From Squalus acanthias (taxonomy: Eukaryota): a DNA stretch of 64,000 nucleotides. The stretch is from positions 42,720,001-42,784,000 of the forward strand of contig CM059432.1 of the NCBI GenBank assembly GCA_030390025.1. Direction: 5' to 3'. Numbering within the stretch: the first letter of the stretch is position 1; each line of letters begins with the position of its first letter. Positions 8,982 through 63,703 of this stretch are shown here, in pieces. The position numbers and the translations under genes are program-made. A model generated the notes under the pieces. It saw only the letters and a list, made by a program, of their open reading frames with translations, had not been told where the DNA came from and did not search any database.

Positions 8982-9857
8982 GGCCGGAATTTTGCCAGCG
9001 CTCAGGGGGCAGGTTTGGAGGCGGGACTTCCGGCAAAATCGCAAAGATTGACAGCGGGTCAGAAACCCGCTGTCAAGCCGCCTCCAAACAATCTTCCCAG
9101 GTGTCGGGTCCCCGATTTGCGCATGGACCCGACACCTAGTGGCAGGAAGAGGATTATAGGCACTTAACTGCTTGTTAACAGGTTGTTAACAGGCAGTTAA
9201 GAGGCTTTTTGTAATTTTGACAGGTCTACTGCAGGCTTCCCGACGTCTGGACACCACGCCAGGTAAGTGTGGCGTGCTGTGAGTCTACTGTAATGTTTCT
9301 GCATTGATGACAGCTGCAGAAGTGGTGTGAAGGATCCAATGGTACACTGTGAGTTTCAGAGGTAAGGAAATGTTGGGGAAATCATTTTTAATGCATTTGC
9401 ACTTTTCTGTAGGTGACAAGTTTTGGATTGTGTGTGTAGTCCCACCTCATTGGGAGAACCTCTCTCACCAGTGACAGATTGCTTCTGTAACCTCACCTGC
9501 AGCTGCCATCTGTTCTAGCCTAAGGAGGGAGTCACTGGAGATCCTGGGTGCAAGGGCTTACCTTTGTACAGTGATCGTCAGTGTTTGCAGCACCTCAGTG
9601 CTGTTAAACACTGAAAATTCAGCTGTCAAAAAAAATTGTGCGTGGCCCCTTTAAGAAAACCGGCAGATGACGCGTCATCAGCTGACGTCATCTGACACCA
9701 GTTTCCTCTTAATTGGCCGGCAAGCCCACAAGGCGGGCTTAGCAAGGCCAATTAACGCAAAATCGCGTCTGTGCATCTGATGTCGTTGGGGGCGGGACTG
9801 GAACCCGGAAGGCAGCTGTCCCGCCCTCAAGCCGCATCGATAGGAAAAATCGTGGCC
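8982..9857. mobile_element. Non-autonomous Harbinger-type element (family B related)
   Basis: Ends GGCCGGAATTTT...AAAAATCGTGGCC. Shares TTTGGAGGCGGG, GTTAACAGGCAGTTAA and GGCCAATTAA blocks with 27653-28485 and 63255-63633 (opposite orientation), and an internal block with 43060-43115. Confidence 0.75.
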
Positions 9858-12627: not shown

Positions 12628-13314
12628 GGCCCTGAATTTCCGATCGGAGGCTTCCTGTGGGCGGATGCCTCCAATCGGAAAAAATCTACGCATTTACCTG
12701 CTGGTTCCGTAGATCCCGAGGCTTGCGCAGAGGCCCATGTATCCCAGGGGCGCATGCGGTTCGCAAGCGCCCCTGGGATCACATGGGCCAGGTGAACCAA
12801 TGAAAGAAGGGAATCCCCCTTCATACTTCTGACAGTTCTGTACGCACAGAACTGTCAAAAGCACGAATGGGGATCACATTTAAACACGCACTGAAATATT
12901 AAATACATTTTTTTTAAACTACATATTTAAAATTAATTAAAATGACGTTTAATTAAGTATTTTAAACAAAAATTAAATTTTTTGAAGAAAAAAAATTAAA
13001 TTTTTTACCGGGCTAAAAATAAACATACCTTTTTGAAGAGTTTTTTTAATTTATAAATGAGTTACCAAGTTGCATTTTTCTATTTTTTGAAACTCTTAAG
13101 CTGGTAAAAGCAGGCCTTACGCCTGCTTTTACCAGGTGTAAGAATTTGACAGTCATTCAGCAGACGAAAGTTGTGCAAAAAGCCCAACTCTCCACCCGCA
13201 GAGGTACATTTCTTGTGCATGCGGATGATCTGTCAAGACAGATCGCAAGTGCTGGCTTTTAGCGCATGTGCTTCGCTCCTTGTACGCATCCGTAGGGGTC
13301 ACAAAATCCGGCCC
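12628..13314. mobile_element. Harbinger-type MITE family A, inner copy
   Basis: TIRs GGCCCTGAATTT / AAAATCCGGCCC, flanks tat/tgt. Paralogous to the element it sits in. Confidence 0.85.
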
Positions 13315-13423
13315 TGTATGTTTTAATGGGGCTAAAAATAAACTTACCTTATTGGACAGGGTTTTTAATGTATAAATGAGTGATAACATTTTATTTTTCT
13401 ATTTTTTAAAACTCTTATGCTGG

Positions 13424-16400
13424 TAAACTAATTAGTGGGGGGAAGGTTTCAAGAGAGCAAAAAATAAAAATGACAACAGAGAGGGTCATAGACATAGGTA
13501 GCAGTAGGGGAATCACAAATCAGAGCGTGGCAGGAAGGGACAGAGTGTGTGGAGTAAAAGGTAAAGTGGTAAAAAGTGAAAAAGCAGGAACTAAGTGCCA
13601 CAAAGCATATTTGAAAGTTCTCTATCTGAATGCACGTAGCATTCGTAACAAAATAGGCGAGTTAATGGCACAAATAACTACATATGGGTATGATCTTGTG
13701 GCCATTACAGAAACATGGCTGCAGGGTGACAATGCCTGGGAATTAAACATACCAGGTTATTTAACGATCAGGAAGGACAGGCAGGAAGGAAGGGGAGGTG
13801 GGGTGGCTATGTTAATAAAGGAAGGAATCACTGTAATACAGAGTAATGATATTGGGTCAAAAAATCATGATAATGAAACAGTTTGGGTGGAGATAAGGAA
13901 TAATAAGGGGGAAAAAACACTAGTGGGCGTAGTCTATAGGCCTCCAAACAGTTGCAACTCTGTTGGACGGAGTATCAATCAGGAAATAGTTGAGGCATGT
14001 AATAAGGGAACATCTATAATTATGGGGGATTTTAACTATCATATTAATTGGACAAATCAAATGGGGCAGGGCTGCCTTGAGGATGAGGTCATTGAGTGTA
14101 TTAGGGATGGGTTTCTTGAGCAGTATGTAACTGAACCGACCAGGAGGCAATCAACCTTAGATCTGGTCCTGTGTAACGAGACAGGATTAATTAAAAATGT
14201 CCTAGTAAAGGATCCCCTTGGAATGAGTGACCATAACATGGTTGAATTCCATATTCAATTAGAGGGTGAGAAGGTTGGATCTCAAACAAGCGTGCTAAGC
14301 TTGAATAAAGGAGACTATGAAGGTATGCGAGCGGAATTGAGTAGAGTGGATTGGGAAAATAGATTAAAGGGTAAGACGACACATGATCAGTGGTGTACAT
14401 TCAAGGAGTTATTTTACAACTTCCAAAAAAAATATATTCCACTGAAAAGAAAAGGGTGTAAAAGAAAGGACAGTCATCCGTGGCTAAGTAAAGAAATTAA
14501 GGATAGTATTCGACTAAAAACAAGGGCATATAAGGTAGCGAAATCTAGTGGGAGGACAGAGGATTGGGAAAACTTTAAAAGGCAGCAAAAAATAACAAAA
14601 AGATTGATTAAGAAAGGGAAGATAGATTATGAAAGTAAATTAGCAAAAAATATAAAAACAGATAGTAAGAGTTTTTATAGTTATATAAAAAGAAAAAGGG
14701 TGGCTAAAGTAAATGTTGGTCCCTTAGAGGATGAGACCGGGAAATTAATGGTGGGAAATATGGAGATGGCAAAAACACTGAATGAATATTTTGTATCAGT
14801 CTTTACAGTAGAGAACACTAAGAATATCCCAACACTGGACAAACAGGGGGCTATAGGGGGAGAGGAGCTAAACACGATCAAAATCACTAAGGAAGTGGTA
14901 CTCGGTAAAATAATGGGACTCAAGGCGGATAAATCACCTGGACCTGATGGCTTACATCCTAGAGTCTTGAAGGAAGTGGCGGTAGGGATTGTAGATGCAT
15001 TGGTAATAATTTTTCAAAACTCCCTGGATTCCGCTAAGGTCCCGGCAGACTGGAAAACTGCTAATGTAACACCCTTATTTAAAAAGGGCAGTAGACAGAA
15101 GGCTGGTAACTATAGACCGGTTAGCCTAACATCTGTGGTAGGTAAAATTTTGGAGTCCATTATTAAGGAAACAGTAACAGGACATTTGGATAATCATAAT
15201 TTAATAGGACAAAGTCAGCATGGTTTTACGAAGGGGAAGTCATGTTTGACAAATTTGCTGGAGTTCTTTGAGGAAGTAACATATAGAGTGGATAAAGGGG
15301 AACCAGTGGACGTAGTGTATTTAGACTTCCAAAAGGCATTTGACAAGGTGCCACACAAAAGATTATTGCTTAAGGTAAAAAATCACGGGATTGGGGGTAA
15401 TATTCTGGCATGGATAGAGGATTGGCTATCTAACAGAAAGCAAAGAGTTGGGATAAATGGTTCATTCTCAGACTGGCAATCAGTAACTAGTGGTGTTCCA
15501 CAGGGGTCAGTGCTGGGTCCCCAACTCTTTACAATCTATATTAACGATTTGGAGGAAGGGACCAAGTGTAACATATCAAAATTTGCAGATGATACAAAGA
15601 TGGGAGGGAAAGTAGTGAGTGAGGAGGACATAAAAAACCTGCAAGGGGACATAGACAGGCTAAGTAAGTGGGCAGAGATTTGGCAGATGGAATACAACAC
15701 TGGAAAGTGTGAGGTGATGCACTTTGGCAGGAAAAATCCTAGAGCAATTTATTATCTTAATGGCAAGAAACTGGAGAGTACTGAAGTGCAAAGGGATCTG
15801 GGGGTCCTGGTGCACGAAACTCAAAAGGTTAGTATGCAGGTGCAGCAAGTGATTAAGAAGGCAAATGGAATGTTGGCTTTCATTGCTAGGGGGATAGAAT
15901 ATAAAAATAGGGAGGTATTGCTTCAGTTGTACAAGGTATTGGTGAGACCGCACCTGGAATACTGCATACAGTTTTGGTGTCCTTACTTAAGGAAAGACAT
16001 CCTTGCTCTCGTGGCAGTGCAAAAAAGGTTCACTCGGTTAATCCCGGGGATGAGGGGGTGGTCATATGAGGAGAGGTTGGGTAGATTGGGACTCTACTCA
16101 TTGGAGTTCAGAAGAATGAGAGGCGATCTTATTGAAACATATAAGATTGTGAAGGGGTTGGATCGGGTGGATGCGGGGAGGATGTTCCCGATGACGGGTG
16201 AGACTAGAACTAGGGGACATAGTCTTAGAATAAGGGGCTGCTCTTTCAAAACTGAGATGAGGAGGAACTACTTCACTCAGGAGGGTGGTAGGTCCATGGA
16301 ATATGCTGCCACAAAAAGCTGTAGAAGCTACATGATTAAATAAATTTAAAACAGAAATAGACAGTTTCCTAGAAGTAAAGGGCATTAAGGGTTACGGGGA

Positions 16401-25500: not shown

Positions 25501-26935
25501 GGTGAAATGGCTGAAAGCTCTGTAACTTGGTGAAATGGCTGAAAGCTCTGTAACTTGGTGAAATGGCTGAAAGCTCTGTAACTTGGTGAAATGGCTGAAA
25601 GCTCTGTAACTTGGTGAAATGGCTGAAAGCTCTGTAACTTGGTGAAATGGGTGAAAGCTCTGTAACTTGGTGAAATGGCTGAAAGCTCTGTAACTTGGTG
25701 AAATGGCTGAAAGCTCTGTAACTTGGTGAAATGGCTGAAAGCTCTGTAACTTGGTGAAATGGCTGAAAGCTCTGTAACTTGGTGAAATGGCTGAAAGCTC
25801 TGTAACTTGGTGAAATGGCTGAAAGCTCTGTAACTTGGTGAAATGGGTGAAAGCTCTGTAACTTGGTGGAGTGGCCGAAAGCTCTGTAACTTGGTGGAGT
25901 GGCTGAAAGCTCTGTAACTTGGTGGAGTGGCTGAAAGCTCTGTAACTTGGTGGAGTGGCTGAAAGCTCTGTAACTTGGTGAAATGGCTGAAAGCTCTGTA
26001 ACTTGGTGGAGTGGCCGAAAGCTCTGTAACTTGGTGGAGTGGCTGAAAGCTCTGTAACTTGGTGGAGTGGCTGAAAGCTCTGTAACTTGGTGGAGTGGCT
26101 GAAAGCTCTGTAACTTGGTGAATGGCTGAAAGCTCTGTAACTTGGTGGAGTGGCTGAAAGCTCTGTAACTTGGTGGAGTGGCTGAAAGCTCTGTAACTTG
26201 GTGAAATGGCTGAAAGCTCTGTAACTTGGTGAAATGGCTGAAAGCTCTGTAACTTGGTGGAGTGGCCGAAAGCTCTGTAACTTGGTGGAGTGGCTGAAAG
26301 CTCTGTAACTTGGTGAAATGGCTGAAAGCTCTGTAACTTGGTGAAATGGCTGAAAGCTCTGTAACTTGGTGGAGTGGCCGAAAGCTCTGTAACTTGGTGG
26401 AGTGGCTGAAAGCTCTGTAACTTGGTGAAATGGCTGAAAGCTCTGTAACTTGGTGAATGGCTGAAAGCTCTGTAACTTGGTGAGTGGCTGAAAGCTCTGT
26501 AACTTGGTGGAGTGGCTGAAAGCTCTGTAACTTGGTGGAGTGGCTGAAAGCTCTGTAACTTGGTGGAGTGGCTGAAAGCTCTGTAACTTGGTGAATGGCT
26601 GAAAGCTCTGTAACTTGGTGAAATGGCTGAAAGCTCTGTAACTTGGTGAAATGGGTGAAAGCTCTGTAACTTGGTGGAGTGGCTGAAAGCTCTGTAACTT
26701 GGTGGAGTGGCTGAAAGCTCTGTAACTTGGTGAAATGGCTGAAAGCTCTGTAACTTGGTGAAATGGCTGAAAGCTCTGTAACTTGGTGGAGTGGCCGAAA
26801 GCTCTGTAACTTGGTGGAGTGGCTGAAAGCTCTGTAACTTGGTGGAGTGGCTGAAAGCTCTGTAACTTGGTGGAGTGGCTGAAAGCTCTGTAACTTGGTG
26901 GAGTGGCTGAAAGCTCTGTAACTTGGTGGAGTGGC
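25501..26935. repeat. 28-bp minisatellite, about 51 units: GGTG(AAA/GAG)TGGCTGAAAGCTCTGTAACTT
   Basis: Directly visible head-to-tail units with no spacers. Two main variants plus rare 27-bp and single-base variants. Confidence 0.98.
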
Positions 26936-26967: not shown

Positions 26968-29361
26968 GCCTGCATCCTAGGGTCTTAAAAGAAGTGGCTG
27001 CAGAGATAGCGAATGCGTTGGTTGTAATCTACCAAAATTTCCTGGATTCTGGATAGTTCCCAGCAGATTGGAAAACTGCAAATGTAACGCCACTATTCAA
27101 GAAAGGAGGGAGACAGAAAGCAGGAAACTATAGGCCAGTTAGCCTAACATCTGTCATTGGGAAAATGCTGGAATCCATTATTAAGGAGGTAATAGCCGGA
27201 CATTTAGAAAATCATAAGACAATCAAGCAGAGTCAACATGGTTTTATGAAAGGGAAATCGTGTTTGACAAATTTGCTAGAGTTCTTTGAGGATGTAACAA
27301 ACAGGGTGGATAAAGGGGAACCAGTAGATGTAGTGTATTTGGATTTCCAGAAGGCATTCGAAAAGGTGCCACATAACAAGTTACTGCACAAGATAAGAGC
27401 GCACGTGGTTGGGGGTAATATATTGGCATGGATAGGGGATTGGCTAACTAACAGAAAACAGAGAGTCAGGATAAATGGGTCATTTTCCTGTTGGCAATCA
27501 GTAACTAGTGGGGTGCCACAGGGATCAGTGCTGGGGCCTCAACTATTTACAATCTATATTAATGACTTGGTTGAAGGGACCGAGTGTACTGTAGCCAAAT
27601 TTGCTGATGATAAAAAGATAGGTGGGTTAGCAAGTTGTGAGGAGGACACAAAGGGCTGGATTTTGAAGTTGGAGTCGGGTTGGGGTCGGGAATCACACAT
27701 TCTGGCTTGTGAACTCGCCTCCATCGAGATGTGGCCAACCCACTGTATTTTCCCTTGATTGACCTTGTTGAGCCCGCCCAGTGGGCTCAGCAGGCCAATT
27801 AAGGGCCACCCGGCAACAGGTGACGTCACAGACTGACATTTCATCTGTCAAGAGCTTTTGACAGATGAAATATCAACGTTTGACAGCTCTGTGAAGCTGT
27901 CAAACACTCACAGTATGATTTCTAACTTCAGTCCTTCCTCTCAGGCTGAGTTAGAAATCATTCCAGCACATAAAACAGAAGGCTGCAGTTTCTGACAGAA
28001 CCACGGCTTTCCTGCTTTCTGTGCCGGTGAGATTTCTAACTCCCGAGAACTGAAGGGCTGACACCTGCAGGAGGAAGTTAAGGTAAGTAAAACTTTTTCC
28101 AACACTTAGCACTTACCTTACACACTTACCTCTGCACACATGCACCCATCACTCACCTGCCCACCGGACATATCGACCTCTCCAACCCCTGCAGACCCAC
28201 GGCCTGCCCCGATAAATTGGCGTGGTTGCCACCTGTCGGGAAGCCCACACTTTTCTTTTTAAAATAGGGATTATGCAAAAAACTGCCTGTTAACTACCTG
28301 TTAACAGGCAGTTAATTGTCACTAATCCCTTCCCACCTCGGGGAGTCGGGTCTCAGCACAGGTCGGGTACCCGCCGCCAGAGAAACTGGCATGGAGGCGG
28401 GATGGGGTCGGGACCCCCGAATCTGCAACTTTAACCCCCGCCCCGCCTCCAAACCCGACTCCACGGGGCATTGAAAATCCAGCCCAAAGAGTCTGCAAAG
28501 GGATATAGATAGGTTAAGTGAGTGGGCAAAAATTTGGCAGATGGAGTATAATGTGGGAAAATGTGAGGTTATCCACTTTGGAAGGAAGAATTAAAAAGCA
28601 AATTATTATTTAAATGGAGTGAGACTACAAAATGCTGCGGTACAAAGGGATCTGGGGGTCCTAGTACATGAAACACACAAAGTTAGCATGCAGGTACAGC
28701 AAGTAATTAGGAAGGCTAATGGAATGTTGGGATTTATTGCAAGGGGTATGGAGTATAAAAGTAGGGAAGTTTTGATGCAAAAGGGTGCTGGTGAGACCGC
28801 ACCTGGAGTACTGTGGACAGTTGTGGTCTCCATATTTAAGGAAGGATATACTTGCATTGGAGGCAGTACAGAGAAGGTTCACTAGGTTGATTCCTGGGAT
28901 GAAGGGGTTGCCGTATGACGAAAGGTTGAGCAGGTTGGGCCTATACTCATTGGAGTTTAGAAGAATGAGAGGTGATCTTATTGAAACATATAAGATTCTG
29001 AGGGGGATTGACAGGGTGGATGCTGAGAGGATGTTTCCCCTCGGGGTATCTAGAACTAGGGGGCATAGCTCAGAATAAGGGGTCGCCCATTTAAGACGGA
29101 GATGAGGAGGAATTTCTTCTTTCAGAGGGTCGTGAATCTTTGGAATTCTCTACCCCAGAGAGCTGTGGAGGCTGGGTCATTAAATATATTCAAGGCGGAG
29201 ATTGACAGACATTTGAACTACAAGGGAGTCAAGGGGTATTGGGAGAGAGCGGGAAAGTGGTGTTGAGGCCAAGATTGGATCAGCCATGATCTTATTGAAT
29301 GGCGGAGCAGGCTCGAGTGGCCGATTGGCCTCCTCCTGCTCCTGTTTCTTATGTTGTTATG
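26968..29361 (+). mobile_element. 5'-truncated CR1 (RT to tail) split by a MITE
   Basis: ORF 27165..27758 carries RT motifs up to FADD. The element resumes at 28486 (aaagagtctgcaaagg). Confidence 0.92.
27653..28485. mobile_element. Harbinger-type MITE family B (833 bp)
   Basis: Perfect 12-bp TIR GGGCTGGATTTT / AAAATCCAGCCC, with a 3-bp TSD AAA (27650-52 and 28486-88) inside a CR1. Confidence 0.92.
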
Positions 29362-29364
29362 ACT

Positions 29365-31060
29365 AGACTTAGGTAAGTGATGGGTGCCAGAGGGGAAATA
29401 GTGCTAGAGAAGGTTTCAGAAGTAAAGAAGAGAGGTGTCATGGAGATTTTTTTAAACGGGCAAAGTTTTTGAAATTGGTGGGGAATGGAGAGGCAGTGGA
29501 GGTCAAGTTTGATCGGGTCTTATTGTGGAATAGGCTTTGGGCAGCAGAGGTTTGGATGAGTTTGAGCTTATGTAAGGAGGAGTTCAGTCGGCTGACGAGG
29601 TGAGCTTTGGAGACGTTGAGCCTGGGGGTGATAAAGGCATGGATAGGATTTTCAGCACCCATGGGAACCAAGTAGGTGATCTTTCAAAACTGGAAATAAG
29701 CGGCATTGGTGATGGACTGGATGTGAAATTTGAAGTTGAGCACAAGGTCAGACCGTACACTGAAGCTTTGAACTGTTGGGTTTAGTCTGAGTGAGCAGCT
29801 GGGAATAGAAATGGGATAAATAAATAAATATGAGAAGTACTGGTGAAAGCCAAACAGGATGGTTTCAATTTCACTAATGTTTAGCTACAGAAAGTTCTAG
29901 CTCATCCATGACTTGATGTGAGACAGTACAGCAACACTCATAAAATCGAGAATGATGGTGGATAGGTAAAGCTGTGTATCATCAGCATACATATGGAAGC
30001 TGACCCCCACATTTACAGATAATGGGCTGTATTTTGCGACCCCTACTGGTGCGTACGAGGTGCGCACGCGCCCGTGGGGGCCGGGCAAGTTCCGGGTTTA
30101 GGCATGCGAAGCGCATGCGCTAAAACCCGGCACTTGCGATCTGTCAAGAATTCTCTTGACAGATCCTCCGCATCCCCAGGCTGTTTGCACAACTTCCGCC
30201 CGCTGAATGCCTGTCAAATTCTTACGCCTGGTAAAAGCAGGTGTAAGGCCAGCTTTTACCAGCATAAGAGTTTTAAAAAATAGAAAAATAAAATTTTATC
30301 ACTCATTTATAAATTAAAAATACTCTTCAATAAGGTAAGTTTATTTTTAGCCCCGTAAAAACATTTTTTTCCCAAAAAATTACATTTTTGTTTGAAATAT
30401 TTAATTAAATGGCATTTTAATTAATTTTAAATATGTAATGTTTTTTAAAATTTATTTCAGGTGTTGGTGTATTTTTTAAGTGATCCCCATTCATACTTAA
30501 TAAGTATGAATGGGGATTCCCTTCTTTTATTGGTTGGGCCAGCCCACGTGATCTCAGGGGCGCCTACGAACCGCCTGCACCCCTGGGATACGGGGACCTC
30601 TGCCCGCGCAGACCCGGAGAGGCCCAGGATCGCAAGCTTCTGTATCTCCCGGGCCCCCAGGTACATTCGTAGAATTTTTGCAGGTCGGAGGCATCCGTCC
30701 ACGGGAAGCCATAGATCGCAAATGTTGGCCCAATGTCACCAAATGACAGCATATGGTTGTTGAATAGGAGGGGGGGAGCCAAGGATGAAGCTTTAGAGCT
30801 CACCAAAGGTGATCATACTGCTGCAGAAGGAGATGTTATTCCAGGAGATAAGTTGGCAACTTTGAAACAAGTAGGAATAGGAAGCGGTGCCTTGTAAGTG
30901 TATCATAAAGGAAAGACTCTGGAGGAGGTGGTGTGGTCGACCATAGCAAAGGCCATGGAGAGGTCAAGCAACGATAATGCATCGTGGTCAAAATCACACA
31001 GGATATCGTTGATGATTTTGACCAAGGTGGTTTTAAGGCCGTCAGTGGGGAAGAAACTAG
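29365..31060 (-). mobile_element. Degraded L2-type LINE split by a MITE
   Basis: HMYADDTQLYLS (in ORF 29897..30088) and IHAFITPRL...LHKLKLIQTSAA (ORF 29438..29671) are L2-type RT and C-terminal motifs. Confidence 0.8.
30024..30731. mobile_element. Harbinger-type MITE family A (708 bp), uninterrupted
   Basis: Ends GGGCTGTATTTTGCG / CGCAAATGTTGGCCC, with a perfect TSD AAT (30021-23 and 30732-34). Confidence 0.9.
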
Positions 31061-31111
31061 ATTAATGAGATTTTAATAGAGAGTGGTGGAAAAGTGGGTG
31101 GGTACAAAGTT

Positions 31112-31955
31112 ACGAACATATGAAAATTGATGGAAAGGAAAAGACCAGCTGGTCCATCAAGCCCACCCCACACCATGATGGCCAGACCATCCTGGGTGAA
31201 TACTGATTTCCACAACCCCCCGCCCTTCCGCCTCGTCCCATCCCCCACCCCCCTACCCGCAGCCATGTAATCTCCTGGGAAAGGAAACAAAAACCCAGGG
31301 CCAATAAAGGAAAAATGCTCTGGAAAATTCCTCGAGGTTCTCCTCAGGCAATCAAAACAAGTCCAGGAAATCACATGGACTAAAAGTTATCTATAAAGAC
31401 ACTTGCCTTCTAAATGATGCAATCTCAGGACCGTTCCAGCTCCCTCTTGAAGGCACACAGAGACTCAGCATCCACCACACCAGCCGGCAATGTATTCCAG
31501 AGGCTCTTAATACTCCAGGAATAGAATAACCGCCTAACATCCAGTCTATTCCTACCCTTACATAGCTTAAACACGTCTTCCCCGGTCCTCCCCAATGTAT
31601 TAAACTGGAATAATCTATAATTAGGGACTCTATCTAGCCCTTTAATTATTTTATGGACCTCTATCAAGTTACCTCTAACTTTATGCTGCTCTAAAGTAAA
31701 TAGACCAAGGTCCTTGAGTCTATCTGAGTAGCTGAGGTCCTTTAATCCAGGAATCATCGTAGCTCTCCTCTGGACCTTTTCCAAGGCCACTGTATTACCT
31801 ATCATGTGTGGGGTCCAAAACTGGGCACAGTACTCTAGATGTGGTCTGACCAGCAACTTGTATAGTGTCAAAATGGTGTTCTTTGTTTTATACTGAATGG
31901 TTCTATTAGTACAACCCAATACCCTGGTAGCTTTAGCTGCAGTTTCTCTACATGG
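31112..31955 (-). mobile_element. Divergent CR1 subfamily, 3' fragment
   Basis: ORF 31425..31919 (LVRPHLEYCAQFW, LEKVQRRAT) with a distinct 3' UTR. Confidence 0.85.
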
Positions 31956-31967
31956 GAATGGGTTTCA

Positions 31968-32297
31968 ACAATTACAACAGTGACTACACTTCAAAAGTAC
32001 TTAATTGGCTGTAAAGCACTTTGGGACCTCAGGCCATGGAGAGGTCAAGCAACAATAATGCATTGTGGTCAACTAGAAGACTTGCATTTATACCATCATG
32101 GTGTGGGGTGGGCTTGATGGACCAGCTGGTCTTTTCCTTTCCATCAATTTTCATATGTTCGTAACTTTGTACCCACCCACTTTTCCACCATTCTCTATTA
32201 AAATCTCATTAATCTAGTTTCTTCCCCACGATGTCCTGAGGTCGTGAAAGGTGCTATATAAACGCAAGTCTTTCTATTGCTTTAGGTGATCTAGCCA
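31968..32297 (+). mobile_element. Deu-domain SINE tail with a templated insertion at about 32025-32229
   Basis: attacaacagtgactacacttcaaaagt...ctttggga and gatgtcctgaggtcgtgaaagg are contiguous in the copy at 41160-41250. Confidence 0.8.
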
Positions 32298-46180: not shown

Positions 46181-47868
46181 GTGGGGCCTATTACAGGCAA
46201 AGAAGGTGATATATGCATAGAGGCGCAGGGCAAGGCTAGAATACTCAATGAGTACTTTGGGCTGGATTTTGTCAATGGTGTGCGTTGGGGGCGGGACTGC
46301 TGGTTTTCGGGTTTTAACTGTTAACAGGCAGTTAAATGGCTGTAATGCCCTTCTCGCCTCGAGGAGACGGGTTCCTGCGCAACTCGGGGACCCTCCTCCT
46401 GGGAAGATGGCACGGAGGCGGGTTGGGAACGGGTTCGGTACCCACTCCCAGTTTCTGCCATTTTCCCAGCAGTCCTGCCTCCATACCCGGCTCCCCAGGG
46501 CTGGCAAAACTCCCCCCAAGTTTTAGAAACAATAATCAAGGAAAAAATTAATGGGCACTTGGAGAGGTTTAAGCTAATTAAGGAGAGCCAACACAGATTT
46601 GTAAAAGGCAGATCGTGTTTGACTAATCTAATTGACTTTTTTGATGAAGTAACAGGGAGGATTGATGAAGGGAATGCAATGGATGTTGTCCACATGGATT
46701 TTCAGAAGGCGTTTGACAAAGTACCACATAGAAGGCTGGTTAACAAAATTGAGGCTCATGGAATAGGTGGGTCAGTGATAGCTTGGATAAGGAATTGGCT
46801 TAAGGACAGAAAACAACGAGTTGTGGTAAATGGCTGTTTTTCAGACTGGAGGATGGTAGACAGTGATGTTCCCCAAGTGTCAGTGCTGGGGCCACTGCTT
46901 TTTTTGAAATATATAAATGACCTGGATATTGGAATACAGAGTAGAATTTCTAAATTTGCCGATGACACCAAACTTGGGGGTGTAGCAAACAGTGATGATG
47001 ATAACAATCGACTGCAACAGGACATAGAAAGGCTAGCAGAATGGGCAGACACGTGGCAGATGGGATTTAATACAGAGAAGTGTGAGGTGATGCATTTTGG
47101 CAGAAGGAACAGGGAGAGGCAATGTACATTTAATGGCACAGTTTTAAAGAGTGTGCAGGGACAGAGGGACCTGGGAGTTAATGTGCATATGTCCCTGAAG
47201 GTGGCAGAACATATTGAGAGAGTAGTTAGCAAAGCATATGGGATCTTGGGCTTCATAAATAGAAGTATTGAGTACAAAAGTAAAGAAGTTATGCTGAACC
47301 TTTATAAAGCGCTGGTTAGGCCACAACTGGAGTATTGCGTTCAGTTCTGGTCACCACACTTTAGGAAGAAGGTGAAGGCTCTTGAGAGGGTGCAGAGGAG
47401 ATTTACCGGAATGGTTCTGGGGATTGGGGATCTTAGCTACAAGGACAGGTTGGAGAAGCTGGATTTGTTTTCATTAGAGCAAAGGAGGTTGAAGGGTGAT
47501 TTGATAGAGGTGTACAAGATTATGAGGGGCATGGATAGGCTAGACTGGGAAAGGCTGTTCTCACTAGTTGATGGTACAAGGACTAGGGGACACAGATTTA
47601 AGGTTTTGGGCAAGAGATACAGGGGGGATGTGAGGAAAAACTTTTTTACGCAGCGAGTGGTGAGGACTTGGAATTCGCTGCCGACAGAAGTGGTGGAAGC
47701 AGAGACACTCAATGTTTTCAAGGGGGAGACTGGATAGGCACTTGAGGGAAATAAACTTGCAGGGCTACGGGGATAGAGCGGGGGAATGGGACTGACTGGA
47801 TTGCTCGACAGAGAACCGGCATGGACACGATGGGCCGAATGGCCTCCTTCTGTGCCGTATGACTCTAT
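46181..47868 (+). mobile_element. 5'-truncated CR1 with an open RT/C-terminal frame (46559..47737, 392 aa)
   Basis: DFQKAFD, VPQVSVLGP and FADD motifs. The tail tatgactctat is interrupted by the Harbinger element. Confidence 0.92.
46259..46517. mobile_element. Short MITE family B derivative with mismatched ends
   Basis: Left end GGGCTGGATTTTG, right end GGCAAAACTCCCCCC, internal GTTAACAGGCAGTTAA. No TSD. Confidence 0.8.
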
Positions 47869-48380
47869 GGGGTAAAAATTCAGTTGGTTGCGCCTCCCGT
47901 TAGCGCCTTAAGAGGGCGCTAATGGGGCGTTAAGCCGCTAACGCCCGGGCGCAGCGCTGTTTGCGCCGCTCGAGAACTTAACTTGAGATTGTGCGGCGGC
48001 GCTAAAACTTACCGCTGCGACCACCTGCGCGCGCAGATTGTGACGTCATTCCATGGTGCAACGCCCTTGGGGCGCCCCGGAGCGGAAGTTGAGTGGCGCC
48101 CCCTGCCTTACCGCCTGGCGCTTCCAACGACCAGAAGACTGGAACGTTATCAATCGCTGTGGGGCTGGGGGGGGCGCTATTTAAAGGGGGCCTCTTCCTG
48201 TCTTTTTCTGTGGTCGACATTTATGCACCACTTGTTCTGAGAGAGAGAGAGAGATTTGGAGAGAGAGAGAGAGAGACTTCTACATTGACTCAACGCTTTG
48301 TGAGGTAGTTTGGCCTAGTTCATCCTAACTTTGTTGCTACTTTAGTTGCTGTACCTCATTACTTTTCTGGCAAAGAGAAT

Positions 48381-49541
48381 ATGGGGGCTGCAATGATTGG
48401 GGGCGTCGTCCTGCTCCAGCTGAATCGGAGGATAGTGAGACGCAGACAGAGAGTGGCAATGATGGCCAGACGGAGGAGGGCCATCAGGCGCATGTACAGG
48501 AGAGCTTACCCTCCCAGGGTATATCGTGAACAGCTCTCCTACATCCATATGTCCGAGGAGCTGTGTTTGCGAAGGCTGCGATTCAGCAAGGAGGTGGTCA
48601 CTGAGCTCTGCCACCTGCTGCAGCCAGATCTGCAGCCTCAGCTGAGGTCCAGGACGTCTCTGTCGGTGGCAGTGAAGGTCACAGTGGCTTTGAACTTCTA
48701 CGCCACTGGCTCATTCCAAGCTGCTGTTGGGGACCTCGCCAATATCTCCCAGTTTGCGGTGCATCGCTGCATCCGGCAGGTCACCAATGCCCTCTTCAGA
48801 AGGAGACGAGACTTCATCTCTTTCCCTATGACCCCAGACAAGCAGCATGACCGTGCTATGGGCTTTGCGAGGGTAGCGGGCTTCCCCATGGTGCAGGGCG
48901 CCATTGACTGCACGCATGTGGCTTTGCGTGCTCCGCGAGAGAATGCAGAGGAGTTCCGGAACAGAAAGGGGTTCCATTCCTTGAATGTGCAGTTGGTCTG
49001 TGACCACAGACAGGTGATTCTCGCTGTCAATGCCCACTATCCGGGCAGCTGCCACGATGCTTTCATCCTGCGCCAGACTACTGTGGCAGAACTTTTCGAG
49101 GCACCGCATCAGCCAGTTGGTTGGCTTCTGGGGGACAAGGGGTACGCATTGAGCACCTGGCTGATGACACCGCTCCGTGCGCCAAACACCCCTGCTGAGC
49201 TGCGGTACCAGGAAAGCCATCAAGCAACCAGGAACATTATTGAGCGCACAATCGGCGTGCTGAAACAACGGTTCCGCTGTCTGGACCATTCCGGAGGAGC
49301 CCTGCAGTACTCGCCTGAGCAAGTTTCGAAGTTCGTAGTCGTGTGCTGCATGTTGCACAACATGGCAATCCTCAGGACCCAGCCAATGCCACCAGGCCTT
49401 GTAGCACCACCAGAGGAGGAGGAGGAAGAGGAGGAACAGGACGAGGACGATGATCATCAGCAGCACCAAGGCAGGAGGGCGGCCCACAATGGTCAAACTG
49501 CAAGGGCCGTCCGTCAACGACTAATAGCAAGCCGCTTCTAG
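48381..49541 (+). CDS. Harbinger (HARBI1-like) DDE transposase, 386 aa, uninterrupted
   Basis: Helix-turn-helix region (VALNFYATGSFQ...ISQFAV), catalytic motifs GAIDCTH, GDKGY and IERTIG, plus NRKGFHSLNVQ, PGSCHDA and LHN. Confidence 0.96.
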   Translation: MGAAMIGGVVLLQLNRRIVRRRQRVAMMARRRRAIRRMYRRAYPPRVYREQLSYIHMSEELCLRRLRFSKEVVTELCHLLQPDLQPQLRSRTSLSVAVKVTVALNFYATGSFQAAVGDLANISQFAVHRCIRQVTNALFRRRRDFISFPMTPDKQHDRAMGFARVAGFPMVQGAIDCTHVALRAPRENAEEFRNRKGFHSLNVQLVCDHRQVILAVNAHYPGSCHDAFILRQTTVAELFEAPHQPVGWLLGDKGYALSTWLMTPLRAPNTPAELRYQESHQATRNIIERTIGVLKQRFRCLDHSGGALQYSPEQVSKFVVVCCMLHNMAILRTQPMPPGLVAPPEEEEEEEEQDEDDDHQQHQGRRAAHNGQTARAVRQRLIASRF

Positions 49542-49835
49542 GGCCCCTGCCATTGCTACAAACACGAATCAACCCAGCACGCAACCCCTAAGCCGGCCAA
49601 GGCACCAATAATTCCAACCACCAGCCATGTATATTTTGAATACAGAAACTTATTTATTTTACAAACTCTGTGTGTGTCAATTCCTCATGACAAACTCATA
49701 GAAATAAACACAAAAAAACAGTCAATAACATAACTGGTTCTCACAACCTGGAGATAATGTCCAAAACACTAAACAAAAGTTGGGCCATGAACCTCGGCCT
49801 TTAATAAAAAAATGACCAGCATTTTGGCACACCTC

Positions 49836-50815
49836 CTACATTTTGCCCTTCGAGGGTGATCTCCTTCCCTTGCGCACTTCCCCCCTTCTAACCCTACTGC
49901 TCCTCCGTAATGGGACCTCAGTGGCTGCAGCAAGGCTGGTGGAAGGCTGCTGCTCGTCAGACCCTGACACTGCAGATGCACCTGAAGGACGGCCTCGACC
50001 ACTTCTGGGCCTGGAGGGCCCGGCTGCAGACTGCACCAACTCTGCATGGGCGGCAGCAGTCTGTCCTACAGGCGGTGGCAAGTGCAGTGGAGAAGTGACA
50101 GTGTTGGCAGCAGGAATGCTGTCATCGTGAGAGAGGACAGCAACTCCCTGCTCGCCCGACACACTGGCACTCCCACGGGGCAGCACTTCAGCATCCGGAG
50201 CAATTTGCCGGAGAACAGATTGCTGGCCTGCTGCGGCGCGGTGACAGCCCCGGGGACATGTGCACGAACCATCGAGGATGGCAGCAGTCAGTGCTCGCGT
50301 GGCCTCAATCTGAGTCTGCATGAGAGCAGTCTCAGATGGGTTCCTGGCAGTCAGTGACTGAATTGCAGCACTAAGCTTTAGTGTGGCATCCGCCTGTGCT
50401 ACAGCGAAGTGCTCCACACTCCTTGCCAGTGCCTCAATGCATTCGGGCACCCTTCCCACTGCACCCATGAGCTCAGTGTGCATGCCCACCGCCTGGCTGT
50501 TCATTTCTGCAATCAGCCGCTCCTCCTCTGCGTCCATTGCAGTAGGAGTGTCTGGCATACTCTCCCTCTGGGGAGAAGGCTCCCGTTCTTCCCTCCCCCC
50601 CCCATGGCGTTGCTGCAGCCCGCTGGGCCCTGGAGCTTCACCATCATCAGCCCCTTCCCCCCTGCTCCCCTCCGGGGAAGGCGTGTTCCCAGTGTGGCCA
50701 TGGGCTTCCTCGGGAGAGGGTGGCACTGATGCTCCGGCTTCCTCTTCCTCCTCAGCTGCAGCATCACTCCCAGTGGCAGCTTCAGGGCCCGTCTCCTCAG
50801 CTGGTGAATCACCAT
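49836..50815 (-). CDS. Myb/SANT-like protein, exon 3 (low-complexity region, coiled-coil-like segment, basic C-terminus)
   Basis: Acceptor ctccctgctttcag|AT. Phase 1 joins the frame of ORF 49836..50726. The three exons total 1380 nt, or 459 aa plus stop. Confidence 0.8.
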
Positions 50816-50974
50816 CTGAAAGCAGGGAGGTACAAGAGTGGCTTTAGCGTGAGGACAGGGTGGCAGTAAGGGAGGAATAAGTGCAGCGAGTTAGCAAGTT
50901 GGATTGAAAGTGTCAAAGGCTGGTATTGTGAGGGACAAGTGGAAGGACAGAGGACAAAAAGGTGATGACCTTAC

Positions 50975-51137
50975 CATTGCTGTCCAGAACAGGGTCGGCG
51001 TCCCCAGTGGCGACGGGACCGATCACCCGGCTTGCCACAATCCTGTGGACGCGCTCCTCCAGATCGCTGAGGGGTTGCAGCTGAAGCCGCCCTGCACCCG
51101 TCCGTTGCTGCTGTCTCCGATTATGAGCCAGCTTAGC
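50975..51137 (-). CDS. Myb/SANT-like protein, exon 2
   Basis: Acceptor tttttcttgcag|GCT, translation AKLAHNRRQQQRTGAG...LSDLEERV, donor G|GTAAGG. 163 nt. Confidence 0.85.
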
Positions 51138-51421
51138 CTGCAAGAAAAAGGACAGCATCTGAGTAAATATACAGCCATGGTCTTGCCTGATGTGCCTCCC
51201 ATAGGTGAATAGCCCTTACAATATGCAGCCATGGTCTTGCCTGATGTGCCTCCCATAGGTGAATAGCCCTTACTGTATGCAAAGTGTGGAATGTGTGTGT
51301 GTGTTTGATGAAAGGGCCATAGGTGTTGGATGAGTGTTGTGCATTGGGGTTTTAAGACCCTCTGGCCATAGAGTGAGGTTGAGATGGAGGGATGGAGAGG
51401 TATTGAGAAAAAGCCACTCAC

Positions 51422-51658
51422 CCTGACGACCCGAGTGAGGTCGTTGAATTTTTTGCGGCACTGAACATGGGTCCTGGGCACCATGCTCCTGGAGGAGACG
51501 CTCTGAGCCACCTCCCTCCACACTCTTCTGAACTCGCGTGGCAAAGGCCTCCTGCCACTCTCCGGGAACAGCATGCATCGTCTGCGCTCCACTGCGTCAA
51601 CCAGAGCATCCAAGGCCCGCTCGGTGAAGCGATGAGCGCGTTCTCTCACCCTCTCCAT
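51422..51658 (-). CDS. Harbinger Myb/SANT-like DNA-binding protein, exon 1
   Basis: MERVRERAHRFTERALDALVDAVERRRCMLF...WREVAQSV...RTHVQCRKKFNDL (trihelix domain). Donor AGG|GTGAGT, 237 nt, phase 0. Confidence 0.9.
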
Positions 51659-52039
51659 GCTTGGCAGCAAAATGGATTACAGGTCTCTCCAGGCTGAGAT
51701 TCAAGGCTGCAATGAGCAGGGTGTGGCTGGGGAGCAAGTGCCCCCCCCGCTTTAAGAAGTGTCCGGCGCCAGTGTGTCTGTGTTCCCTCGCTAACTGGCA
51801 GCAGCTGTGCTGCGCTCGCGCGCTGAGGTAGCGCCTCACTCCTAGGCCTTTGCGCCTTAAGAGAGGAGTGCAGCGCCTGCTTTAGCGCTCCACTCACCTC
51901 CCGGGGCGGTAAAAGTGAAGTTTCCTGTCAGTGCCGATAATTAGCGCCAGGCGCTAATATTTGCGCTCGGACGATATTTGCGCCCCAAATGGGGCGTGAC
52001 CTAATTTCTACCCCTATGACTCAAAAAGAAATGCCAAAA

Positions 52040-53190
52040 GTGGGGGTGTATACTGTATATGGTCACAAAAATAAAAAGCATTAGCAAAACAGTCAAGGAC
52101 AGTGGCTTAAAGTGCAGTGCATGAATTAAACCGGTAAAACTAAAACAACATACGGCAAAAACAATAACGATAAAAGTGAAAACCCTTTTAGACTCTCAAA
52201 TTCATAACCATTATCAAATTTGTTGGTGTCATCTAAGTTGTGCCCAGTGTCCGTACAGTAACTGTCAAAGTCTTGTATTTGGACAGAGGCTCAAGTTCCT
52301 CCAGCAGATCATCATCTTCACTCCCATGTATGCATCATTTTGTAAAGCCATTCCCATTCTGTATTCTGTGGATCCATGCATCCACTATCCACTGCAGGTT
52401 TGCTGCATAGTTCAAATTTGTGTATAACCTCGAGCAGTGAAGGTGTATATGCCATTATTCATCCATTTATTCTATTGCATTTTCAGAGCGACCTTCACCA
52501 TTGCTCACCACTATACCCTGCTACTGTAACATTTGCCCCATTCATCCAGGAATCACTGTTGGATGACTTATGTTTCTTTATAGCTCCTTCCTGACAGTAG
52601 GCATTTGAATGAATTCAGGACAAGTAATGAACATTTACTATTAATCAGACCACCAGGTCCAATCCAGCATCAGGCTCTCATCCATCCATTCTCCCCTTGG
52701 ATATGAGCACCCCATGGAAATTTTACTGTAGATAACTTGGTTCTGGCCATCAAACAGCAAGCATTATAGCAAACCAAGACTTGGCCTAGCCAATGGTATT
52801 GCTGGAACTTGATTCAGCCGCTTTTCAGCAGCTGAACAGTTGTATGGCACGTCAAACGTGAGTGGAATCTGATCAGCATTTCCAATATACAGCTGTTCAA
52901 AACTGTTTTTTTTGATCTGCTCCAATATGAAGAAATGAAATTAAGTTAGTTTATCGTCAAGGTCAGCAAGAAGTTCCTGTGCAGGCGTAGTGCACTGCCT
53001 AATAGATAGGTCATTCTGCCACAAGATCTTTCCATCAGCTTCTGGATGTGTGAAAACAGTATGCCCTTCCTTTTAGCCAGAGAAATACCTTTAGCTATAA
53101 CTTCAGGAATGCTAACCCCAAAACATTTTTCCCTTAACCCTGCCTCCTCCCGCCATTGACCAAACTTGCCAGCTTTCCTCCAACTCAAGG
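52040..53190 (-). pseudogene. Heavily degraded pogo/Tigger-type (DDE_1) transposase relic
   Basis: Minus-strand fragments read GWMDESLMLDW, SLLVLNSFKC, VIPG, NKWMNNGIYTFTARG, QWIVDAW and GSEDD, in the order expected for pogo-family transposases. Confidence 0.6.
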
Positions 53191-53677
53191 TGTTGACTGT
53201 CCATGCTCACTCAACATTACAGAAAACACTGAAAGCTACTGGATAGGTACAGAAAATAATTTAAAAGGCTAATGGAATGATGGCCTTTAGCTCAAGTGGC
53301 TGGAATACAAAGGGATGGGAGTTGTGTTACAGTGGTACAGAGCTCTAGTTAAACCCCTTCTGGAAAACTGCATTCAGTTCCGGGCGCGAGGAAGGATATG
53401 TTGGCCTTGGAGGGGCTGCAGTGCAGATTCACCAGAATTATACTGGGATAAAAGGGTTAAGTTATGAGGACAGATTGCATAGACTAGGCTTGTATTCCAC
53501 TGAATATGGAAGATTAGGGGGTGATCAAATTGAAGAGTTTAAGATGATTAAACGAGTTAAATGAGCAATTATTTTCTCTGGCGGAGGAGTCCAGAACAAG
53601 GGGCATAATCTTAAAATTAGAGCTAGGCTGTTCGGGATGATGTCCGGAAGCACTTCTTCACACAAAGGGTAGTGGTA

Positions 53678-61779: not shown

Positions 61780-63703
61780 ATTATCATTAGGTTTAGAGTA
61801 GTTATGGAAAAGGACAAGGAATAATCGAACATGAAAATACTCAACTGGGAGAGGTCTAATTTCATGAGTTGAAAGGGGATCTGGCCCAGGTGAATTGGAA
61901 TCAAAGATTGGCAGTTAAAACAGTAAATGAGCAATGGGAGGCCTTCAAAGAGGAGATAGTTTGGATACAGACTAGATACATTCCCATAAGGGGGAAAGGA
62001 AGGGCATCCAAAGCTAGACCTCCCTGGATGACTAATGTTAGAGATTAAAATGAAACAGTAAAAGGAAGCTTATGATAAATATCAGGCTCATAAATCGGTA
62101 GAGAACCAAGTTGAATGCAGTAAGTACAGAGGAGAACTGGAAAAGGAAATAAGAGGGGCAAAGAGAGTGTATGAGAATAGATTAGCAGGTAACATAAAAG
62201 GAAGCCCGAAAGTCTTTTATAAACATATAAATAGTAAAAGGGTAATCAAAGGAAGGGTGGGACCAATTAAAGACCAAAAAGATCATCTTGTGGAGATAGA
62301 GGGCATGGCTGAGGTACTAAATGAGTACTTTACATCTGTCTTCACTAAAGAAGAAGATTCTGCCAATATCACAGTAAAGGAAGAGGTAGTAGGGAAATTG
62401 GATACAATTAAAATATATATAAAGAGGAGGTACTTAAAAGGTCCCAGTCTGGATGGGACGCATCCTAAGTTGCTGAAGGAAGTAAGTGGGGAGATAGCAG
62501 AGGCTCTGGCCACAATCTTCCAATCCTCCTTAGATATGGGGGTGGTGTCAGAAGATATTCAAAAAAGGGAGAGGAATAAACCCGGCAACTACAAGCCAGT
62601 CGGTGGTGGGGAAACTTTTAGAGACAATAATCCGAGACAAAATTAATTGGCACTTGGAAAAATATGGGTTAATAAATGATAGCCAGCACGGATTTGTCAA
62701 AGGAAAATCGTGTATGACTAACTTGATTGAACTCTTTGATGAAATAATGGAGCGGGTTGATGTTGTGTATATGGACTTTCAAAAGGCGTTTGATAAAGTA
62801 CCACATAATAAACTTGTTAGCAAAATTGAAGCCCATGGGATTAAAGGGTCAGTGGCAGTGTGGATACAAAATTGGCTAAGGGACACAAAGCAGAGAGTAG
62901 TGGTAAACGGTTGTTTTTCAGACTAGGGAAGTATACAGTGGTGTCCCCTAAGGGTCGGTATTAGGACCACTGCTCTTTTTGATATATATTAAGGACCTGG
63001 ACTTGGGTATACAGGGCATAATTTCAAAGTTTGCAGATGACACAAAACTCGGAAATGTAGTAAACAGTGAGGGGGATAGTAACATACTTCAGGAGGATGT
63101 AGACAGACTAGTGAAATGGGCAAACACATGGCAGAGGAAGTTTAAAGCAGAGATGTGTGAAGTGTACGTACACAAATCTTTGAAGGTGGCAGGACAAATT
63201 GAGAAGGTTGTTAAAAAAGCATACAGGATCCTTGAAGTTATAAACAGAGGCTTTGGGGGTGATTTTGCCAGTGGGGATGCATTGGAGGCGGGACTGCTGC
63301 TTGTCGGGTCGATGTCCCGCCTCTATCGACTTCTGGCCAACCCACGCTATTTTCCCTTGATTGACCTTGTTAAGCCCGCCCAGTGGGCTTACAGGCCAAT
63401 TAAGGGGAAGCCGGTTACAGAGAATGTCAGCGTATGATGTTTCATCTGTTAACAGGCAGTTAAGTGGCTGTGATCCCCTTCCCGCCTTCAGGAGATGGGA
63501 CCTGGCACGAGTCGGCTACCCGCCTCCTGGGAAGATGGCACAGAGGTGGGTTGGGGGCAGGATAGGTACCCGCCCCCAGATTCTGCCATTTTCCCAGCAG
63601 TCCCGCCTCCCCAGGGCTGGCAAAATCCAGCCCATAGAGTAGAAAAGCAAGGACATTATCATAAACCTTTATAAATCACTGGTTAGGCCCCAGCTGGAGT
63701 ATT
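61780..63703 (+). mobile_element. Degraded CR1 ORF2 fragment carrying two MITE insertions
   Basis: ORFs 62167..62646, 62603..62926 (QHGF, DFQKAFD) and the start of 62979..63437 (FADDTK). Confidence 0.9.
63255..63633. mobile_element. MITE family B, internally deleted copy (379 bp)
   Basis: GGGGGTGATTTTGCCAG / CTGGCAAAATCCAGCCC. The CR1 resumes at atagagtagaaaagc. Confidence 0.88.

Follow-up and report, generated by a model that had tools for sequence, protein, structure and literature searches.

Transposition of PIF/Harbinger elements needs two proteins, and their excision is usually precise (PMC2836001). [quoted passage not shown] The subject here is an element of this type from a cartilaginous fish. 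It occupies positions 47869..52014 (4146 bp) of a 64,000-nucleotide stretch of Squalus acanthias DNA (assembly GCA_030390025.1, contig CM059432.1, 42,720,001 to 42,784,000, forward strand), called the window below. With a probability of roughly three in four, it is a full-length PIF/Harbinger with both genes unbroken in the tail of a CR1 long interspersed nuclear element (LINE), likely one young copy among thousands, and its own mobility is putative.

Harbinger-Snek, likewise a two-gene Harbinger that occurs naturally in a vertebrate, has expanded massively; it includes intact copies and short derivatives, both of its genes are covered by RNA, and it is suspected to be active (PMC8437027). RNA covers both genes of the single intact copy of Laticauda laticaudata, and 269 intact copies are published for L. 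colubrina (PMC8437027), which contradicts the rarity of intact vertebrate copies implied by an earlier note on this DNA. Compared by description, the two differ in origin: Harbinger-Snek reached its sea krait hosts by horizontal transfer, whereas the relatives of the shark element, at 55-66% identity, are from sharks and rays. Large, recently amplified and transcribed Harbingers are also described from the coelacanth and the newt Pleurodeles waltl (PMC5381603, PMC5741667), again a comparison by description. Harbinger3_DR differs in having been reconstructed from a consensus and in its target, a CWG core within AAACACCWGGTCTTT; here, a TAT core (ATA and AAA in other copies) lies between C and G, so the CWG duplication of the NuwaI and Harbinger3_DR type is not found. 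NuwaII, a group within the PHIS superfamily, shares the two open reading frames (ORFs; DDE and Myb/SANT), terminal inverted repeats (TIRs) that begin with GG, a 3-bp core flanked by C and G, and a similar size (about 4.7 kb versus 4.1 kb) (PMC4482050). Its target is C|TNA|G, of which the shark element has the flanks and not the core, since TAT, ATA and AAA do not literally fit TNA; the hosts listed in the available part of that source include no cartilaginous fish.

Shark genomes are described as dominated by LINEs and poor in DNA transposons, which make up 1.58% in the grey reef shark (PMC12498223). In the parts available, the shark genome papers name Harbingers only as a repeat class (PMC12498223, PMC8455134), PMC9392472 deals with domesticated Harbinger genes, PMC9179366 states that Harbingers were not detected in the elephant shark, and the word ‘Harbinger’ is not present in the main text of PMC4255032. 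No description of an intact or active shark Harbinger family was found in the literature searched; repeat databases, subscription journals and supplements may hold one.

Anatomy of the element and its insertion site

The element is a structurally complete Harbinger of autonomous type that inserted after its CR1 host. It combines the features of an autonomous PIF/Harbinger (PHIS) element, namely a DDE_Tnp_4-type transposase, a Myb/SANT gene, TIRs and a 3-bp duplication, arranged as follows.

46518..47865, + strand: 3′ portion of the CR1 LINE into which the element inserted, with a tail repeat at its end (RVT_1, E 4e-24, on ORF 46346-47737; matches other CR1 copies in the window)
47866..47868, + strand: left TAT target-site duplication (sequence)
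47869..47880, + strand: left TIR, 12 bp, beginning GGGG (sequence; joint at 47869 in other copies)
47890..48180: left subterminal region in which GGCGCT(AA)-type motifs recur as candidate binding sites of the Myb protein (motif counts)
48300..48377, + strand: putative short intron within the 5′ leader of the transposase, with its donor at 48300 or 48305 and its acceptor at 48375 or 48377 (predicted from sequence)
48381..49541, + strand: transposase gene, 386 aa, ATG at 48381, stop ending at 49541 (PF13359)
49542..49835: AT-rich spacer separating the two convergent genes; poly(A)-like signals lie at 49703 and 49803 (+) and at 49653 (-)
49836..50815, - strand: Myb exon 3, 980 nt with stop (homologues align into it)
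50816..50974, - strand: Myb intron 2, 159 nt, GT-AG (joint 50815-50975 in putative RNA runs X17 and X19)
50975..51137, - strand: Myb exon 2, 163 nt (GT-AG borders, homology)
51138..51421, - strand: Myb intron 1, 284 nt, GT-AG, open in the exon-1 frame (homology supports an intron)
51422..51658, - strand: Myb exon 1, which starts with the ATG at 51658 and encodes the Myb/SANT domain (PF13873, E 1.3e-9)
51820..51990: right subterminal region with GGCGCT(AA)-type motifs as on the left (motif counts)
52003..52014, - strand: right TIR, 12 bp (sequence; joint at 52014 in run X12)
52015..52022, + strand: right TAT duplication (52015-17) and remainder of the CR1 tail unit (sequence)

The TIRs are inverted and alike in 11 of their 12 bases. 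The probability that two given places would by chance show both this TIR match and a 3-bp duplication is about 3e-8, uncorrected for searching; the TIRs are also short, outside the 25 longest among the 111 inverted pairs of a repeat-finder listing. In-silico removal of the element with one TAT regains two units of the 8-base CR1 tail repeat. Both TIRs, the perfect TAT duplication and an insertion later than the CR1, all proposed in the earlier note, are thus confirmed. Its description of the element as CpG-rich is correct relative to the adjoining CR1 (observed/expected 0.56 versus 0.35, with 0.94 at 47869-48381 and 0.73 at the other end), and the enrichment is modest, since a value of 0.68 occurs in another 2-kb bin elsewhere in the window.

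Further evidence comes from contigs of the read runs X3 (DNA), X12, X17 and X19 aligned to the window. Two further copies in X3 join at 47869 behind A/T-rich letters, which establishes the four-G end and the 3-bp duplication; the letters beside the joints of two other copies are ATA and AAA. An alternative delimitation, a 5-bp duplication with 11-bp TIRs, is compatible with the site alone and is ruled out by these joints.

The element's own target reads C-TAT-G. Elsewhere in the window, an 833-bp non-coding Harbinger-like element at 27653-28485, with GGGCTGGATTTT ends and an AAA duplication, lies in the coding region of a CR1, in the target C-AAA-G; in both, the left flank is GACWC and the right flank nearly mirrors it. 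Four further CR1 3′ ends in the window carry tails similar to that of the host. In X12, two contigs (depth 29) join a CR1 3′ end to the right end of the element in opposite orientation, which indicates that CR1 tails have been hit more than once.

An empty allele would give an alignment that stops exactly at 52014. Record 32 of X3 (1280 nt, depth 9.9) behaves in this way: it aligns over 52014-53199 with 7 differences (0.6% of the flank), and at least 19 letters past 52014 are not aligned to the TIR. In such an allele, TAT would likewise be preceded by C, and the following base would be a different one. Another sample therefore likely carries an empty site here, as judged from one contig whose unaligned letters are unseen.

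The two genes and their expression

The transposase matches PF13359 (E 5e-39), and alignment with homologues places its catalytic residues at D176, D226, D252 and E288; all four acidic residues are kept in only 39 of the 103 homologues that span those columns. Two positions depart from conserved columns, A236 (P in 85/113 homologues) and Q277 (N in 105/115). In the predicted model (pLDDT 84), the strand, strand and helix positions of the catalytic residues agree with the available description of the fold (PMC4482050). A Foldseek search of the PDB with this model gave no match at E <= 0.001, its DDE-fold matches being weak (best E 7e-3). A TATA-like box is predicted at 48178, and the joint of the possible leader intron was not among the 15 of 58 joints listed.

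The exact transposase sequence is absent from the protein collection searched. The best 120 of its 369 homologues are mostly shark and ray models, with up to 65-66% identity, named ‘putative nuclease HARBI1’. Together with ‘myb-related transcription factor’ models, they are the nearest proteins (up to 66% for the transposase, 38% for the whole Myb-like protein); they are automatic annotations, many of them truncated or without catalytic residues, and none of the papers retrieved treats them as a transposon family. In a quick tree of 92 rows (the query and 91 of the 120 homologues), the transposase sits among long-branch sawshark copies, 0.69 changes per column from the nearest row, in no strongly supported set and with no close partner.

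The same homologues contain five short-branch HARBI1 clades from distant sharks and rays (P0009/P0012; P0022/P0024; P0039/P0040; P0004/P0005; P0008/P0015/P0017/P0021/P0023/P0030/P0107). The final catalytic E is missing from 14 of the 15 proteins, and a full set of four acidic residues occurs in none of them; by their sequences, the clades look like several domesticated Harbinger transposase genes specific to sharks and rays. A relative of the element's Myb protein (the P0128 cluster) is more than 90% conserved across four ray species and is a candidate domesticated Myb gene.

Three exons with GT-AG borders join the Myb gene into a single 459-aa frame. The spliced product aligns to a sawshark model over aa 11-456 (E 5e-63). 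As a query, exon 1 retrieved one protein by word search and 74 by full HMMER search, and exon 3 alone retrieved no homologue among 8000 candidates. Among the 70 of the 74 homologues that were compared, alignment extends to aa 100 or beyond in 45 with the spliced form and in 3 with the form that retains intron 1; the bit score is better with the spliced form in 46 and with the retained form in 23. Intron 1 contains a 54-bp tandem duplication (51166-51273), and its open frame arose in 351 of 5000 resamples (7%), which is not significant alone.

The splicing of intron 2 as predicted is supported by the joint 50815-50975 (CT..AC ends on the + strand), present at depth 122 in X17 and 622 in X19 and not seen in X3 or X12, the joints of X3 having been counted only in part. 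At intron 1, the sole X17 contig over 51461 continues through the exon-1 donor into the intron, and in X19 one intron-1 site is deeper than one exon-1 site (1708 versus 884). This read-through could stem from the many genomic copies or from DNA within the runs; regulated retention of intron 1 is the bolder reading. The Myb transcripts are those of the family and cannot be assigned to this copy. Many X3, X17 and X19 contigs diverge just upstream of the Myb ATG (51659-51740), which marks a second subfamily with another 5′ leader. Of the gene models put forward in the earlier note, the unbroken 386-aa transposase with its DDE motifs and the 459-aa three-exon Myb/SANT frame stand; splicing over both Myb introns finds its joint for intron 2, and that of intron 1 was not seen among the joints listed.

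Abundance, age and possible activity of the copy

Summed X3 contig depth has a median of 636,000 over 17 interior bins of the element versus 9.9 in the unique right flank, and at the listed variant sites the median is about 24,000 times that of the flank. Summed depth is no copy number; from the roughly 10^4-fold excess, a family size in the thousands is likely. Depth rises above that of the interior in both end bins, which points to shorter derivatives. In X12, the element and a neighbouring CR1 variant have similar depth, near 40, and the unique flank is absent, a pattern that fits either few native copies or trace DNA from another shark.

Reads under seven organism labels contain 0.43-0.87 of the words of the stretch. 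Two small runs of 1 and 9 million letters contain 0.57 and 0.54; a share of 0.55-0.65 is the expectation for a 98-99% family consensus. Horizontal transfer among the seven labels was considered and is possible, though not supported. The runs of organism A hold 0.82 and 0.87 of this copy's words, which limits its private differences to at most about 17-24 (0.4-0.6%). The closest long pieces differ by 1.4% (X12, 28/1964) and 1.7% (X17, 25/1482), and the remaining X19 pieces by 4.5% (45/999); these figures omit CR1 pieces and the divergent element pieces (2/7 in X12, 2/7 in X17, 1/5 in X19), which are about 7-10% different and were taken as the second subfamily. Since 82-87% of the words occur in runs of organism A, one of which apparently lacks the locus, the 1.4-1.7% mostly reflects inherited differences between subfamilies, not decay after insertion.

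The two frames are most likely open through youth, and not through preservation as a source element. In simulated neutral decay (600 trials each), the share of copies with both frames open is 37-53% when divergence is 0.4% and 3-7% when it is 1.5%. In a family of thousands, many open copies are thus expected by chance, and open frames are weak evidence of activity. In the 40 rows visible out of 234 variant rows, the copy departs from the family majority (at least 65% of depth) at 13 coding positions, and 4 of these changes are synonymous, in line with the 25-29% expected under neutrality. Purifying selection that is strong (ratio of non-synonymous to synonymous rates, dN/dS, 0.2) is disfavoured (P 0.01-0.02), and moderate selection is still compatible.

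Several points weigh against the reading of a complete young copy from a very abundant family with an empty site elsewhere. Overlapping contigs inflate the summed depth. A flank contig like that of an empty allele would also result from precise excision or if the sample came from a sister species (the flank is 0.6% different), and at the epaulette-shark mutation rate a 0.6% flank difference allows millions of generations. The target motif is drawn from two two-ended sites in the window and from two joints seen on one side. X17 and X19 are labelled as RNA by a guess of the read-alignment tool, and the 15 joints listed out of 58 include none that splices intron 1. Finally, 7 of the 13 coding differences lie in the Myb gene, mostly in its poorly conserved exon 3.

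The reading that the family transposes today and that this copy is competent to take part goes further, and is unlikely on balance. It would agree with the presence of all four acidic residues, a set that is incomplete in most homologues spanning those columns, with the likely empty allele, with spliced family Myb transcripts in both putative RNA runs, with the small number of private differences, and with the lack of any listed majority difference on a catalytic or strongly conserved transposase column. Young is not necessarily now, however: at 7e-10 mutations per base per generation, the rate given for the epaulette shark (PMC10587355), 0.3-0.4% corresponds to 4-6 million generations. The neutral look of the copy's differences, the departures at A236 and Q277, the intron-1 joint missing from those listed and transcripts that belong to the family as a whole also speak against present activity of this copy. 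A cell assay in which the native proteins transpose is a possible outcome, short of an expected one.

It is quite improbable that the family is extinct and the insertion old and fixed, looking young through slow shark mutation, with the odd flank contig produced by a deletion, by excision at a later time or by faulty alignment. The slow mutation rate (PMC10587355), the distance of the closest long pieces and the spread of word shares under seven labels, which fits a burst before lineage splits, are in line with it. Such a history accounts poorly for a flank contig that ends exactly where an empty allele would, and for the high word share in the runs of organism A, one of which apparently lacks the locus. 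A transposase-Myb pair domesticated by the host in the manner of HARBI1/NAIF1 is close to negligible in probability, for even though relatives bear the name HARBI1 and several short-branch clades across species look domesticated, this element is not a single-copy, fixed gene without transposon ends, since it has intact TIRs and target-site duplication, about 10^4-fold depth, all catalytic residues and a likely empty allele, and it has no short-branch partner in another species.

For the preferred reading, a complete young copy, a mechanism can be proposed. By analogy with Harbinger3_DR and Ping/Pong (PMC2836001), the Myb-like protein would bind the repeated end motifs and carry the transposase into the nucleus. 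The transposase would then excise the element and insert it with a 3-bp duplication into a short near-palindromic site, composed of C, three A/T bases and G with GACWC-like flanks, which the CR1 tail repeat would happen to resemble. If intron 1 were retained, a 211-aa protein would result, with the DNA-binding domain and without the native tail, possibly a repressor. In the P element, the form that retains the last intron is a repressor and offers an analogy for the 211-aa product. A naturally working Harbinger, which would be the first of a cartilaginous fish, that still jumps into 13-bp near-palindromic CR1-tail sites and is switched by the splicing of Myb intron 1 is a very improbable combination; a working element alone, the splicing switch set aside, is doubtful.

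Other repeats in the window and significance

The window contains further short Harbinger-like elements or ends at 46259-46517, 63255-63633, 63704 onward, 8982-9857 and 12628-13314; in the pairs compared, the triplets beside them disagree. The one at 46259 appears to lie fused between two CR1 parts that do not adjoin each other. Among the remaining repeats, a 1185-bp element (31045-32229) has 137-bp inverted repeats of 99% identity and no clear target duplication was found for it, and an array of 51 copies of a 28-bp unit (25501-26935; 96% match) is open in three minus-strand frames. An unbroken 977-aa CR1 ORF2-like frame (13410-16343), with endonuclease and reverse transcriptase recognised by eye, represents a young LINE copy.

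If the element does not work, it is an ordinary young transposon copy. A young and very abundant two-gene Harbinger family in a shark usefully extends what is known, and its insertions are potential markers for populations. The copy supplies both native genes and the ends for a direct assay, whereas the assayed vertebrate Harbinger cited above had to be reconstructed. Should the element prove to work, its extended target with an A/T core would make it a distinct, semi-specific integration tool.

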